Source: Myxococcales bacterium (lineage in GTDB: Bacteria > Myxococcota_A > Polyangia > Haliangiales > Haliangiaceae). From it: a DNA stretch of 64,000 nt. Every line of letters starts with the position of its first letter. Positions within the stretch are counted from its first letter, which is position 1. The notes beneath the pieces are model-generated. The model searched no databases. It saw nothing but the letters and a program-made list of their open reading frames with translations, and was not told the origin of the DNA. Of the stretch, positions 11,992-16,586 are shown piece after piece. The position numbers and the translations under genes were made by a program. The stretch is taken from the NCBI GenBank assembly GCA_016794525.1, contig JAEUJY010000077.1, positions 173,091 through 237,090 of the forward strand. The letters are read 5' to 3'.

Positions 11992-13035
11992 ATGGGAGCT
12001 GCCGTGGGGCCGGCCGAACAAGACATCGTCGACGAGTCGGCGGTCCTGGAGTCACTTCCGACGGCCATGCTGGTGATCGACGTGGACGGCGTGATCGTGC
12101 GGGCCAACCGCCGGGCCCGCGAGATCCTCGACAAGCCCGACCTCGTCGGCACGCCGGCCGGCGACATCCTCGGTCCGTGGCCGCTGCCGCGGACCGCCGA
12201 CGTCGCGCGCTCGGAGCGGACGCTGCCCCGGCGCGACGGCACCGCGATCACGCTCGGCTTCTCGATGTCGTCCTTGCCCGACGGGGCGACGACGATCGTG
12301 TTCCAGGACATCACGCCGTGGCAGCGGCTGCGCGAGGAGCGCGACCGGCTGATGCAGCTGGCGATGGTCGGCGAGGCGCTGCCGTCGATCCTGCACGAGC
12401 TCAAGAACCCGCTGGCCGCGCTCAACGCCGCCGTCGAGATCCTGATCGAGGAGACCGCGCCGGGGCCGGTCCAGGACCAGCTCCACGCCGTGCTGCAGGA
12501 GGCCCGCCGGCTGCGCCTCGGCTTCGACGGCGTCGGCGCGGTGGGGCGCGCGCTGCGGTCGCGGCGGTACCAGGCGGTCGACCAGGCCTGCCGCGACTCG
12601 TTCCGGGTGCTGGAGATCCCGGCGCGAGCGGCTGGCATCAACACCCGCTGCGACGTCGTCGACCTGCCGCTGTTGCCGCTCGACCCGGCGGTGGTGCGGG
12701 CGATCGTCTTCAACCTCGTCACCAACGCGATCCACGCCTGCAGCCCGGGCGACGCGATCAACCTGCACGTCCGGCTGGTCGCCAACGGTCTGGCCCTGGC
12801 GCTCACCGTCGCCGACACCGGCACCGGCATGACCCACGACGTCTACTCCCGCTGCACCGAGCTGTTCTTCACCACCAAGCGCAACGGCTCGGGCATCGGC
12901 CTGGCGCTGGTGCGCCAGGCGGTGACCGAGGCCGGCGGCGAGCTCGAGATCGAATCGGTGCCGGGGTTCGGCACCTGCATCACCGCGCTGGTCCCGGTCG
13001 TCGCCGCGCCGCGCATCTCCGCACCTACTCCCTGA
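11992..13035 (+). CDS. PAS-domain sensor histidine kinase.
   Basis: A PAS-like N-terminus is followed by an H-box LHELKNPLAAL and then N/G1/G2 boxes of HATPase_c (NLVTNAIHA, DTGTGM, GSGIGLALV). Confidence 0.85.
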   Translation: MGAAVGPAEQDIVDESAVLESLPTAMLVIDVDGVIVRANRRAREILDKPDLVGTPAGDILGPWPLPRTADVARSERTLPRRDGTAITLGFSMSSLPDGATTIVFQDITPWQRLREERDRLMQLAMVGEALPSILHELKNPLAALNAAVEILIEETAPGPVQDQLHAVLQEARRLRLGFDGVGAVGRALRSRRYQAVDQACRDSFRVLEIPARAAGINTRCDVVDLPLLPLDPAVVRAIVFNLVTNAIHACSPGDAINLHVRLVANGLALALTVADTGTGMTHDVYSRCTELFFTTKRNGSGIGLALVRQAVTEAGGELEIESVPGFGTCITALVPVVAAPRISAPTP

Positions 13036-13047
13036 GGAGGGAATTCC

Positions 13048-13413
13048 ATGTCTCGCGTCGATGACCTGAACCGAATCCTCCGGACGCTGCAGTCCGGCAC
13101 GCCCGACATCGAGGCCAGCGCGCTGGTCTCCGAGGACGGCCTCATGATCGCCAGCGCGCTGCCGCAGCACGTGCAGGAGGTGCGGGTCGCCGGCATGAGC
13201 TCGACGCTCCTGTCGCTCGGCATGCGCGCGGCCACCGAGCTGGGCCGCGGCAACCTCGAGCAGGTGCTGATCCGCGGCACCAACGGCTACGTCGTCATGG
13301 TCAAGGCCAAGTCCGGGACCATGCTGCTCACCCTCACCACCAAGGAGGCCAAGCTGGGCCTCATCTTCCTCGACATGTCCCGGGCGGTCGAGGACATCGA
13401 CCGGATCCTCTGA
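13048..13413 (+). CDS. Roadblock/LC7 (MglB-like) domain protein.
   Basis: The 121-aa product contains …EASALVSEDGLMIASALP…LEQVLIRGTNGYVVMVKAKSGTMLLTLTTK…, typical of a Roadblock/LC7 fold. A RBS-like GAGGAGGGAA lies upstream. Confidence 0.8.
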   Translation: MSRVDDLNRILRTLQSGTPDIEASALVSEDGLMIASALPQHVQEVRVAGMSSTLLSLGMRAATELGRGNLEQVLIRGTNGYVVMVKAKSGTMLLTLTTKEAKLGLIFLDMSRAVEDIDRIL

Positions 13414-13424
13414 AGGAGCACGTC

Positions 13425-14186: not shown

Positions 14187-14193
14187 GCCGGCC

Positions 14194-15243
14194 ATGCCAC
14201 GCGTGCTGATCCTCGAGGACGAGACCGTGCTGCGCGCGTCGATGGCCCGCGGCCTGGCCAAGCTCCCGGCCGACGTCGTCGAGGCCGGCACGCTGGCCGA
14301 GGCCGTCGCCGCGCTCGATCGCGCGTTGCCCGACGTGATCGTCTCCGACCTCGACCTGCCGGACGGCTCGGGCATCGAGCTGATCGGCGAGCTCGGGCGG
14401 CGCAAGGCCCGGGTGCCGGTGGTGTTCGTGTCGGCGTACCTGCGGGCGTTCCGCGCGCAGATCCCGCCCCACGCCGACGTCGAGGTGCGCGAGAAGCCGA
14501 TCGCGCTCGAGGAGCTGCGCGCGCTGGTGCGCGAGCGGATCGGCGGCCGCGACGAGGCGGTGGCGCCGTTCGCGGTGGTCGACTACCTGCAGCTGGCCTG
14601 CCTGGGCAAGCACTCGGTGGCGATCGACGTGGTCGGCCGCGATCGCCGGCGCGGGCGCATCGAGGTGGTCCACGGCGACATCTGGCACGCCATCGACGAT
14701 CACGGGGCCGGCGCGCCGGCGTTCAAGCGGCTGGCGTTCGGCACCGCGGCCGAGGTCACCTGCCGCACGCTGCACGGGGCGCCGGGGCCGCGCACGATCG
14801 AGGGCAAGTGGGAGGCGTTGTTGATGGACTCGGCCCGCGAGCACGACGAGGAGAGCTACAGCGGTGCGGCGCAAGACGCCGAGCTCGACCTCGCCATCCA
14901 CGAGTTCGAGGACGAGCAGATCGCGTGGCCACCGGCCGGCGGGCTGGTGTCCGCCGACGCCGCGCTCGCGGCCCGGCCGGCGTCAGGGCCGGCGCCCACG
15001 CCGCCGCCGCTGGCCAGCGGCAGCGAGACCTCGGTGGCGCGGGTCGTCGCCGACGAGTTCACCGTGACCCGCGACCGCGCGGTCGACGCGCTGCTGGTGC
15101 GCGACTACGCCACCGCCGCGCAGCTGTTCGCGGTCGCCCATGCGCTGCGCCCCGAGGACGGCGCGGTCGCAGCCAACCTGGAACGCCTGGCCGCCCTCGG
15201 GTTCGCCAGCGCACCCGAGCAACCGGAGAAGCACGATGCCTAG
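14194..15243 (+). CDS. Response regulator with a receiver domain plus DUF4388.
   Basis: The receiver domain (phospho-acceptor Asp in VIVSDLDLPDGSG) is followed by a DUF4388-like segment (VVDYLQLACLGKHSVAIDVVGRDRRRGRIEV). Confidence 0.8.
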   Translation: MPRVLILEDETVLRASMARGLAKLPADVVEAGTLAEAVAALDRALPDVIVSDLDLPDGSGIELIGELGRRKARVPVVFVSAYLRAFRAQIPPHADVEVREKPIALEELRALVRERIGGRDEAVAPFAVVDYLQLACLGKHSVAIDVVGRDRRRGRIEVVHGDIWHAIDDHGAGAPAFKRLAFGTAAEVTCRTLHGAPGPRTIEGKWEALLMDSAREHDEESYSGAAQDAELDLAIHEFEDEQIAWPPAGGLVSADAALAARPASGPAPTPPPLASGSETSVARVVADEFTVTRDRAVDALLVRDYATAAQLFAVAHALRPEDGAVAANLERLAALGFASAPEQPEKHDA

Positions 15244-16048
15244 ACGGATCGCGATCGTCAGTCAGAAGGGCGGGGTGGGCAAGACCACCGTCAGCCTCAA
15301 CCTCGCGCTCGCCTTGGCCGAGCGCGGCCGACGCACGCTGCTGGTCGACCTCGACCCGCAGGGCGGGGTCGGTCACTCCCTGGCCAAGGGCGACGGCGAG
15401 CTGATCGGCCTGGCCGACGTGCTGGCCGGCCAGGTCAGCGTCGAGCAGGCGGTGCTGCCGACCCACGAGCCCGGGCTGTCGTTGTTGCCGCGCGGCCGGC
15501 TCGATCCGGTCGACGTGTGCGAGCTCGAGCTGATGCTGCACGCGCCGGGGCGGCTCGAGGCGGTGCTGGCCGAGGCCGACGGCGGCTTCGACCTGACGCT
15601 GATCGACACGCCGTCGGGCCTGGGCATGCCGACCCGCGCGGCGCTGCGGGTCGCTGACTACGTGCTGGTGCCGCTGCAGACCGAGCGGCTGGCGCTGCGG
15701 TCGGTCGCGCAGCTGCTGCGCGTGATCGAGCACGTCAAGGCGACCGACAACCCGCGGCTCGAGCTGCTCGGCGTGCTGGCGACGATGGCCGACAAGACCA
15801 GCGAGCCGTCGGTGGCGGTGCTGGTCGACGCCTGGAACGACCTGACCGCGGTGCTCGACACGATCGTCCCGCGCCACGGCGCGTTCGCGCAGGCGAGCGA
15901 GGCCGGGATCCCGCTCGGCTTCCTCGGCGGCGCGCCGTCGCCCGAGGCCCGCCGCTTCGACATGCTGGCCGAAGAGGTCGAGGTCACGATGGCCCGCCTC
16001 GGTGGAAAGGAGCTCGGTCATGACCGCCCGCGCCGTTCCCTCCTCTGA
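15236..16048 (+). CDS. ParA/MinD-like P-loop ATPase.
   Basis: The deviant Walker A IAIVSQKGGVGKTT is present. Its ATG overlaps the upstream stop in the sequence ATGCCTAG. Confidence 0.85.
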   Translation: MPRRIAIVSQKGGVGKTTVSLNLALALAERGRRTLLVDLDPQGGVGHSLAKGDGELIGLADVLAGQVSVEQAVLPTHEPGLSLLPRGRLDPVDVCELELMLHAPGRLEAVLAEADGGFDLTLIDTPSGLGMPTRAALRVADYVLVPLQTERLALRSVAQLLRVIEHVKATDNPRLELLGVLATMADKTSEPSVAVLVDAWNDLTAVLDTIVPRHGAFAQASEAGIPLGFLGGAPSPEARRFDMLAEEVEVTMARLGGKELGHDRPRRSLL

Positions 16049-16586
16049 TCGCCAGGCGCTGCGCGCGCTGGCCCGCCGCCTCCGCCCCGAGGCGGCGACC
16101 AACCGCCTGCCGACGCTGCCGGAGCCGAGCTTCGTCCGCCTCTCGGCGCCGCCGCTCGCCGCGCCGGCGGTCGGGCCGGCCGACCCGGCGCCCGCGACCC
16201 GGCCGATGCCGGCGCCGCCCGACGACCTGGCCGGCTCGGGCGGCTGGGGCCGGCTGATCGAGTGGTGCGTCGTCGACCTCGGCGTCGACTCGGCGATCCT
16301 CACCGACGATCGCGGCCTGGTCATCGCCAGCGCCGGGCTGGTCGATCTCGACGACGCCCAGGGCATCGCGGCCCGGCTGGTGATCGCGTTCCACCAGGCC
16401 GACCGCATGGGGACGGCGCGCTCGCCGTCGATGGCGATCCAGCTGGCGACCGGCTGGCTCACCGGGTTGCGCATCGACAACGGCGGCGATCCGGTGACGC
16501 TGGGCATCATGGCGGCGCGCCCGCTCGACGACGCCACCCGCGACGTGCTGGTCGGGGCGATCGCGCACAAGCTGCGCGACGGCTGA
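16020..16586 (+). CDS. Second Roadblock/LC7-like domain protein.
   Basis: …WGRLIEWCVVDLGVDSAILTDDRGLVIASAG… is consistent with a Roadblock/LC7 fold. An AAGGAG RBS sits 7 nt upstream of the ATG at 16020. The gene overlaps the ParA 3' end. Confidence 0.55.
   Translation: MTARAVPSSDRQALRALARRLRPEAATNRLPTLPEPSFVRLSAPPLAAPAVGPADPAPATRPMPAPPDDLAGSGGWGRLIEWCVVDLGVDSAILTDDRGLVIASAGLVDLDDAQGIAARLVIAFHQADRMGTARSPSMAIQLATGWLTGLRIDNGGDPVTLGIMAARPLDDATRDVLVGAIAHKLRDG

Follow-up and report, generated by a model that had tools for sequence, protein, structure and literature searches.

A ParA-type ATPase and its probable Roadblock-fold partner in a two-component gene cassette of Myxococcota and other bacteria

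The locus

The subject here is a cluster of six genes at positions 11992-16586 of a 64,000-nucleotide stretch of myxobacterial DNA ('the window' in what follows, meaning that whole stretch), in which a two-component system is encoded together with a ParA/Soj-type ATPase and two Roadblock proteins, one canonical and the other a divergent relative. The window has a G+C content of ~75%, and the nearest relatives of its DNA are Kofleriaceae and further Myxococcota metagenome-assembled genomes (MAGs). All six genes are on the + strand, in the order histidine kinase (HK), Roadblock 1 (Robl1), oxygen-binding di-iron protein (ODP), response regulator (RR), ParA and Roadblock 2 (Robl2), with successive spacings of 12, 11, 7, -8 and -29 nucleotides (nt), the negative values being overlaps. 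Protein lengths are in amino acids (aa).

11992-13035, + strand: PAS histidine kinase (HK), 347 aa; PAS_8; HisKA 30.3 bits (cut-off 26.9); HATPase_c E=3e-19
13048-13413, + strand: Roadblock 1 (Robl1), 121 aa; Robl_LC7 (PF03259) E=2.6e-16, 59.6 bits (cut-off 23)
13425-14186, + strand: oxygen-binding di-iron protein (ODP), 253 aa; PF19583 E=8e-72, 241.6 bits (cut-off 27.2)
14194-15243, + strand: response regulator (RR), 349 aa; Response_reg E=4e-14; DUF4388/PATAN 24.6 bits (cut-off 25)
15236-16048, + strand: ParA/Soj-type deviant-Walker-A ATPase, 270 aa; AAA_31 E=1e-33; CbiA E=2e-21; Walker A KGGVGKTT
16020-16586, + strand: Roadblock 2 (Robl2), 188 aa; Robl_LC7 18.6 bits (cut-off 23)

A sequence-only reading of this DNA, made earlier, had the positions, strand and tight packing right; the overlaps that it put at 15236 and 16020 are exact and its domain assignments for the cluster genes hold. 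Where it erred was in counting seven genes: there are six, with no space for a seventh, and its own title named six. A seven-gene version does exist, in a relative (locus L101), owing to a duplicated ODP gene. All components are predicted to be soluble from a Pfam domain scan. A scan for promoters and terminators yielded neither a sigma-70-like site nor an internal terminator, which is uninformative in a myxobacterial genome with 75% G+C.

The ATPase and its probable Roadblock-fold partner

What kind of ATPase is involved? The first 8 nt of parA lie within the end of the RR gene, stop codon included, and in an alignment of 20 orthologues the Walker A motif KGGVGKTT (nt 15266-15289), the A' motif DLDPQG and the Walker B residue D125 are all invariant, which places the protein among deviant-Walker-A ATPases. 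Its closest solved relatives, 4pfs and the Thermus thermophilus Soj structure 1wcv, are of the ParA/Soj type rather than FleN or MinD. Among NCBIfam models ParA_partition gives 93.9, below its cut-off of 180, and minD_bact 64.3, below its cut-off of 212.9; there is also a weak match to the 'KGGVGR-motif variant AAA ATPase' domain of that collection. The family has marks of its own, namely an invariant LLPRGRLDP segment, standing where Soj has LLPA.(P)DL, and a C-terminal tail, (E)RPxRxL[LV], encoded at nt 16022-16045, and both would lend themselves as signatures to a survey of how widely the system occurs. A scan of a genome collection with the ParA alignment relied on generic Walker A and DLDPQ patterns, and among the matches listed only L008, L009 and L010 are true relatives.

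The partner is less easily placed. Robl2 falls short of the Roadblock/LC7 family by sequence, at 18.6 bits against 23 and with no NCBIfam match, and alignment of its profile with Robl1 by hhalign gives a probability of 6.8%, which is not significant. As it is not recognisable as a Roadblock in this way, evidence at the level of fold is needed, and it is a distinct, divergent Roadblock family that emerges. An AlphaFold2 (AF2) model built with 15 homologues has a predicted local distance difference test score (pLDDT) of >90 over residues ~70-188, with the order alpha-beta-beta-alpha-beta-beta-beta-alpha. In a Foldseek comparison with the PDB the top match is Myxococcus xanthus MglB (6hjm, E=2e-6, probability 1.00), and the top 50 matches are all of Roadblock fold, again with probability 1.00; they include MglB, Ragulator/LAMTOR, archaeal and Streptomyces Roadblocks and a GATOR1 chain. 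The sequence-only reading was to fall if the 'Roadblock' proteins failed to model as LC7 folds; Robl2 does model as one, with this resemblance to MglB, and Robl1, for its part, has a Pfam score above cut-off and a match to a solved Roadblock at E=7.5e-27.

The Roadblock-fold domain of Robl2, residues ~72-188 (nt 16233-16583), is preceded by a conserved basic N-terminal helix, SDRQALRALARRLR (nt 16044-16085), an FVRL motif (nt 16131-16142) and a Pro/Ala-rich linker. The same arrangement is found in all orthologues: a predicted helical motif S-D-[LRI]-x-x-A-R-x-L-[SA]-[RQ]-[RK]-L, next [YF]-[VI]-R-[LF], then a Pro/Ala-rich linker that is variable, and then the Roadblock domain. Between 4 and 7 of the first 30 residues are K or R in every locus but one. 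For comparison, the design of proteins that activate ParA/MinD ATPases is an N-terminal extension that is short and has a positive charge, attached to an interaction domain, and in one of them, PomX, the N-terminal region is Ala/Pro-rich (PMC7993993). Robl2, being encoded with its ATPase and having a basic motif, a Pro/Ala linker and a Roadblock domain, has each architectural element of such an activator; its architecture fits that generic design at least as well as it fits an MglB-type GTPase-activating protein (GAP), and it may be the N-terminal peptide, and not a GAP-like surface of the Roadblock domain, that carries its activity.

Is Robl2 tied to this particular ATPase? In all 14 loci compared the two genes adjoin and overlap, and in 13 of these, counting the window, robl2 starts at an ATG that is 29-38 nt short of where parA ends (29 nt in the window). 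The exception is L097, with an overlap of 4 nt. Overlaps of this start-in-gene kind are typical of translational coupling. The overlap at 16020-16048 is dual-coding, since the nucleotides that specify Leu-Leu-stop for ParA (CTCCTCTGA) read Ser-Ser-Asp in the robl2 frame and open the N-terminal motif of Robl2.

The pair also occurs by itself. HK, ODP and RR are all missing at L008 and L095, and L010, from a Thermoanaerobaculia MAG, has just a PATAN protein directly upstream of ParA-Robl2, with no kinase, ODP or receiver. Save for that PATAN protein in L010, the genes upstream of the pair at these three loci show nothing conserved in common. At L010 6130-7957 two DUF4388/PATAN open reading frames (ORFs) are called, 6130-7386 (- strand) and 7046-7957 (+ strand), and since their coordinates overlap at least one start must be mis-set.

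Further, there are natural fusions. A profile search with Robl2 through 1.84 billion representative proteins defined a family of 437 representatives, 243 of them at E<=1e-10, nearly all 175-200 aa long and matched from their first residues. Six of the 437 are single ParA::Robl2 polypeptides of 413-458 aa, with the ParA domain N-terminal of the Robl2 domain; they have diverged from one another and are from separate assemblies, one being on a 6.5-Mb contig and two being named Planctomycetota by NCBI. At the two fusion loci that were inspected the upstream genes are orthologous to those of the window: HK, Robl1, ODP and RR at L103, and HK, Robl1 and RR, with no ODP, at L102. Both Walker A lysines are lost in P0354, P0386, P0391 and P0392 (the L102 protein, 7001-8242, among them), which have GASGGAGRTT, GASGGSGRTT, SSIGGSGRTT and SSSGGSGRST with the PRGRL-type motif kept; to judge from these motifs they may be ATPase-dead binding variants. 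A correlation between loss of the lysines and loss of the basic peptide, looked for in the fusions, is broken by P0354.

Fusion, occurrence as a pair only and translational coupling are together strong comparative evidence that Robl2 and the ATPase act as a physical pair, and it is very probable, on this genomic evidence, that Robl2 is the dedicated partner of ParA. The proposal that a Roadblock-fold protein has a deviant-Walker-A ATPase as its dedicated partner thus comes out of the analysis strengthened, on those same three grounds.

The regulator and the input genes

The RR is more elaborate than it seemed. Its REC domain (residues 1-116) has D9, E10, D52, K101 and P102 invariant, and S80 nearly so, in an alignment of 31 homologues, as befits a genuine receiver, and the phospho-acceptor D52 is encoded at nt 14347-14349. 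A probable PATAN/DUF4388 domain follows at residues ~125-225 (nt 14566-14868), then a disordered linker (residues 247-276) and, not seen in the sequence-only reading, a conserved three-helix, tetratricopeptide-repeat-like C-terminal domain (residues 278-334, nt 15025-15195). The PATAN score in the window, 24.6 bits, is just under the cut-off of 25; most RR homologues have a precomputed PF14332 match, an AF2 model of the RR (mean pLDDT 84.6) has a compact alpha/beta domain at positions 125-225, and custom hidden Markov models (HMMs) of the PATAN and C-terminal segments match every orthologous locus. Foldseek with the full RR model gave receiver-domain matches only. PATAN and the helical domain would make for an output that does not bind DNA and so needs some target, for which ParA/Robl2 is the sole conserved candidate. 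In the otherwise complete cluster of L098 the RR gene (6978-7638) is split across two frames, the called fragment being 237 aa, due either to an assembly-error frameshift or to its being a pseudogene.

The kinase, a soluble protein that carries a PAS domain, has everything expected of a HisKA/HATPase_c kinase, with the H-box His135 in HELKNPL (nt 12394-12396) and intact N box (NLVTNAI), G1 (DTGTGM) and G2 (GSGIGL). An orthologue opens the cluster in every complete locus, and as HK and RR are encoded together in all of these, they have the sequence features of a two-component pair.

Robl1 is a canonical Roadblock/LC7 protein of MglB/CvnB type, with PDB matches to 7f8m (E=7.5e-27), CvnB5 (3leq, E=5e-9) and 9jue. 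The first is a Thorarchaeota (Asgard) Roadblock, matched over the whole length, an unusually strong conservation across domains of life for a protein of 121 aa. Robl1 is also the most conserved protein of the cluster, and is 55-72% identical to its orthologues in the fusion loci L102 and L103; evolving the slowest, it probably has several conserved contacts. Its place may be on the kinase, if the analogy holds with CvnB, which conservons have beside CvnA, and it may also pair with Robl2.

The ODP has a metal-site motif, HQDPD, from residue 74, which is kept when two solved ODPs, 6qrq (E=1e-68) and 6qnm (E=2e-59), are aligned with it over nearly the full length, so that HMM score, homology to solved ODPs and motif agree on family membership. 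PMC7319448 (citing Muok 2019) and PMC7666581 describe ODPs as O2/Fe sensors that have been recruited into diverse signal-transduction operons. By homology, the ODP here points to an O2/Fe(II) input, an aspect that the sequence-only reading had overlooked. It is the sensor component that is the variable part of the cassette: the ODP gene is missing from the otherwise orthologous cluster of L102 and duplicated in L101. In the latter, an 'Archangiaceae' MAG, the two ODP genes flank Robl1 (5113-7004), giving the order HK-ODP-Robl1-ODP-RR-ParA-Robl2.

Recurrence in other lineages

Ten further lineages have the six genes in this same order amid flanking genes that are unrelated, and L102 and L103 add the cluster with ParA and Robl2 fused. 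The full-order loci are in Kofleriaceae-like contigs (L003, L004), Minicystis (L005), other Myxococcota MAGs (L006, L007, L009, L094, L097, L098, L099), the 'Archangiaceae' MAG (L101) and an Acidobacteriota MAG (L100), and a Polyangiaceae lineage is also represented. Shorter metagenome contigs have the same order as far as they extend, and a scan of metagenomes with the Robl2 alignment gave 9 loci, mostly short, all consistent with the cluster. The cassette is spread over at least three bacterial phyla, i.e., Myxococcota, Acidobacteriota and that of the loci with Planctomycetota-like fusion proteins. Identities of the orthologues to the window proteins are as follows.

Robl1: 71-97%
ODP: 67-79%
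ParA: 52-86%
HK: 45-77%
RR: 41-68%
Robl2: 24-69%

The claim that these genes are conserved together as a functional unit is borne out by the recurrence of their order amid unrelated flanks, and comparative genomics gives good support to the idea of an ATPase-Roadblock pairing under two-component control. What of the expected GTPase? With an MglA query sequence, tblastn found no MglA-like gene in the 64-kb window (best E=0.26) nor in the flanks, ~7-8 kb, of ~100 related loci. The gene tables of 11 loci contain no small GTPase, and those of ten (L003-L006, L097-L101, L103) neither CvnC/DUF742 nor CvnD. To that extent the earlier perception, that an ATPase is present where a Ras-like GTPase would be expected, is sound.

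Neighbouring genes

The genes on either side of the cluster are on the opposite strand.

10489-11727, - strand: FtsW/RodA, upstream flank
16603-17895, - strand: 430-aa ORF, function unassigned, downstream flank, 16 nt past the cluster

Two genes downstream of the cluster, 17996-19081 (- strand) encodes a protein of 361 aa in which there is an MshEN domain (E=7e-11), the cyclic di-GMP-binding N-terminal domain of MshE/GspE-type ATPases, and no ATPase domain. The protein is not kept beside the cluster in other genomes. Farther off and unrelated to the cluster, 7486-9177 (- strand) encodes a predicted secreted protein of unusual architecture, in which a CotH kinase domain (E=6e-28) is joined by a Cys-rich repeat, DUF4215, and by a C-type lectin domain (E=8e-10). 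A defence-system reading of the locus was also considered and dropped, as a PADLOC scan gave only generic P-loop and REC similarities.

What might the cassette do?

The scheme that we favour, and to which as a whole a probability of about 0.55 can be attached, has the six genes as one operon for a cytoplasmic signalling cassette of two coupled modules, in which an O2/Fe-responsive two-component input controls a switch composed of ParA and its Roadblock-fold partner. The ODP, a sensor of O2/Fe(II) by homology, would modulate the soluble PAS kinase, and the kinase would phosphorylate the RR on D52, with Robl1 probably serving the kinase as a scaffold or regulator in dimeric form, as CvnB does in actinobacterial conservons. 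ParA would cycle between ATP-dimer and monomer and be bound by Robl2 as its cognate partner, whose basic N-terminal peptide, tethered through Pro/Ala to a dimeric Roadblock domain, most likely would stimulate ATP hydrolysis. The phosphorylated RR would then bias the ParA/Robl2 cycle via its PATAN and helical domains, and the outcome, by analogy with ParA/MinD systems, would be the position or polarity of some cargo; such a spatial or polarity output, as the sequence-only reading had envisaged, is plausible on that analogy. The anatomy, catalytic residues, folds and co-conservation of the genes and the coupling and fusions of ParA and Robl2 are established here; the protein-protein contacts, the direction of the signal, the activation of the ATPase and the spatial output are what we infer. 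More tentative, and somewhat short of an even chance, is the full proposal that Robl2 is an activating or GAP-like regulator of the SIMIBI-class ATPase ParA and that, with the second Roadblock and the REC-PATAN regulator, this makes an oxygen-tuned spatial switch extending from Myxococcota to Acidobacteriota/Planctomycetota.

Several observations weigh against parts of this scheme. In the Robl2 of L010 only 2 of the first 30 residues are K or R, the N-terminal basic peptide is only partly kept in the fusions, and in 4 of the 6 fusions Walker A is degenerate (SGGxGRTT or SGGSGRST), so that the ATPase cycle may not matter there. Because the LL-stop of ParA and the SSD of Robl2 are the same nucleotides, part of their conservation is shared; L097, however, keeps both motifs despite its overlap of just 4 nt, which suggests that each is selected in its own right. 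The role given to Robl1 is a guess by analogy. Moreover, as L102 lacks an ODP and L101 has two, O2/Fe sensing is accessory to the cassette and not what defines it.

Could the ATPase serve the sensor, rather than be served by it? ParA/Robl2 might, as a housekeeping device, position or partition a sensor complex of HK, Robl1, ODP and RR at division and not be the output of the pathway. ParA-like ATPases in signalling operons do position signalling complexes: in Rhodobacter it is the cytoplasmic chemoreceptor cluster that PpfA/TlpT positions, and in Vibrio the arrays that ParC/ParP positions, and TlpT shares a basic N-terminus with other activators (PMC7993993); all components here are soluble, and two Roadblocks could dimerise or stack and in so doing tether Robl2 to a Robl1-bound kinase. 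However, at L008 and L095 the pair is found without kinase, ODP and RR, from which its function is independent of the sensor, and the dedicated, non-DNA-binding output of the RR needs a target, with only ParA/Robl2 being conserved as a candidate. Of the alternatives this is the one that survives best, though it is unlikely, and control of ParA/Robl2 by the two-component system is preferred to it.

An appreciably smaller chance is given to a reading in which the Roadblocks are, like MglB, a GAP or guanine nucleotide exchange factor (GEF) for a Ras-like GTPase encoded elsewhere, the whole being a G-protein system akin to a conservon, with ParA co-regulated and mechanistically separate. The prokaryotic Roadblocks characterised so far, MglB, CvnB and MfpD, all work with small GTPases (PMC4316618), and according to the same source PATAN proteins are sometimes encoded near mglA/mglB. 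Robl1 does resemble CvnB5 and archaeal Roadblocks, and conservons, too, have in their first half a kinase and then a Roadblock. Against this stand the failure, with the MglA query used, to find any gene resembling MglA within the window or flanking ~100 loci, the lack of CvnC/DUF742 and CvnD in the ten loci, and the fusion of Robl2 to ParA in six lineages together with its translational coupling elsewhere, which tie at least Robl2 to the ATPase. Robl1 may yet have a GTPase partner in trans.

Equally improbable is a switch with nothing spatial about it, in which ParA, as a nucleotide-dependent regulator like FleN/FlhG, would act on an enzyme or a transcription factor, by titrating or activating it, and do no positioning. 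Several ParA/MinD relatives behave so and FleN is among the PDB matches; the loss of the Walker A lysines in four fusions suggests binding over cycling, and no cargo gene is conserved beside the cassette in the loci examined. Yet the unfused family keeps its catalytic residues and an activator-like peptide, arguing for the active hydrolysis cycle that is typical of positioning systems, and the closest solved relatives are ParA/Soj, not FleN or MinD. Chance adjacency, or spurious ORFs of a 75% G+C genome, has next to nothing left to recommend it, for though high G+C yields many long spurious ORFs and both Robl2 and PATAN are below Pfam cut-offs, the conservation data refute it, with 12 further lineages having the orthologues so ordered amid unrelated flanks, confident AF2 models for both of these weakest calls and 437 representatives of the Robl2 family.

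If the proposed switch is real, its significance would be severalfold. Roadblock/LC7 proteins are viewed as regulators, of ancient origin, for small Ras-like GTPases, from bacterial MglB to human Ragulator, their platform so far being known only from such regulation (MglB, Ragulator, conservons), and ParA/MinD ATPases are the main spatial engines of bacteria; a ParA–Roadblock pair would join the two fields, being the first Roadblock platform to control something besides a Ras-like GTPase and a fifth type, by architecture, among ParA/MinD activators. Some of the many 'orphan' MglB homologues would gain a function; a 2014 census of prokaryotic small GTPases counted 328 of these orphans, none of them characterised by then (PMC4316618). 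A ParA system would, in addition, have a defined environmental input, O2/Fe via an ODP and a standard phosphorelay, which very few have. The cassette consists of five or six soluble proteins, and its natural fusions and ODP-less variants act as built-in controls.

Comparison with known systems

Has such a system been described before? A search of full-text literature, with poor coverage of subscription journals, most of which were outside its scope, found no published ParA–Roadblock, DUF4388–ParA or MinD–Roadblock–Myxococcus system, and within that compass the suggestion that the system is undescribed stands.

For sensing, the nearest parallels to the ODP are those of Treponema denticola and Thermotoga maritima, with which it shares a strong full-length match, the metal motif and signal-transduction neighbours; the partner there is a chemoreceptor with CheA, whereas here it is a PAS kinase and a Roadblock. 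The RR recalls the PatA-type regulators of cyanobacteria (PatA, PixG, PilG), which combine PATAN with a receiver, as it probably does, and have non-transcriptional, protein-protein outputs in polarity and motility. However, their order is PATAN-REC and here it is REC-PATAN-helical, with an extra three-helix domain, so that the architecture is not that of PatA, and their neighbour is a type IV pilus system in place of the conserved ParA ATPase.

Conservons (CvnA-D, Mfp) are alike in that an HK and then a small Roadblock start the operon and a P-loop NTPase ends it, and accessory sensors occur there too (CvnF8). Of the four core genes, CvnA, CvnB, CvnC (DUF742) and CvnD, only the kinase and Roadblock have equivalents here; the conservon kinase is membrane-bound, in contrast to the soluble PAS kinase, and the genuine REC regulator and ParA-type NTPase set the cassette further apart. 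Conservons belong to Actinomycetota, whereas the cassette is in Myxococcota, Acidobacteriota and the Planctomycetota-like fusion loci.

The MglA/MglB system of Myxococcus and Thermus likewise has a Roadblock dimer and a P-loop NTPase, and MglB chains are the best structural matches of Robl2. Response-regulator input is known there too, through RomR and FrzZ, and PATAN is occasionally near mglA/mglB (PMC4316618). The NTPase, however, is a TRAFAC-class Ras-like GTPase and not a SIMIBI-class ParA, no MglA is linked to the cassette, and MglB is without the N-terminal peptide and linker of Robl2, which itself scores below the Pfam Robl_LC7 cut-off. Since MglA within about four genes is what defines such a module (PMC4316618), the cassette, having no GTPase gene in the cluster, is neither an MglAB system nor a conservon.

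Two classical ParA/MinD systems were considered and set aside. ParABS does not fit, as the downstream partner has a Roadblock fold and is not ParB and the ParA_partition score is below cut-off, no search for parS having been made; nor does MinCDE, there being no MinC or MinE in the cluster, a minD_bact score below cut-off, and a short polar C-terminal tail, RPxRxLL, versus the amphipathic membrane helix of MinD. The closest likeness is to the general class of ATPase-activator pairs, ParA-ParB, MinD-MinE, PomZ-PomX/PomY, McdA-McdB, PpfA-TlpT and ParC-ParP, in which a deviant-Walker-A ATPase is encoded just upstream of a fast-evolving partner, and the partner combines a short, conserved N-terminal peptide of basic character with a Pro/Ala-rich linker and a domain for self-interaction (PMC7993993). 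With PpfA and ParC, as here, the ATPase gene is inside a signalling operon. Differences there are: none of the activators reviewed in PMC7993993 has the Roadblock/LC7 fold that Robl2 has, the window cluster is without ParB, MinC/MinE, chemoreceptor or carboxysome genes, and the cassette has the occasional fusion, the co-conserved two-component system and the second Roadblock, its activator function being a prediction. All in all, the cassette would work most like a ParA/MinD-activator pair placed under two-component control, one that borrows the Roadblock platform of MglA/MglB and the opening of a conservon.

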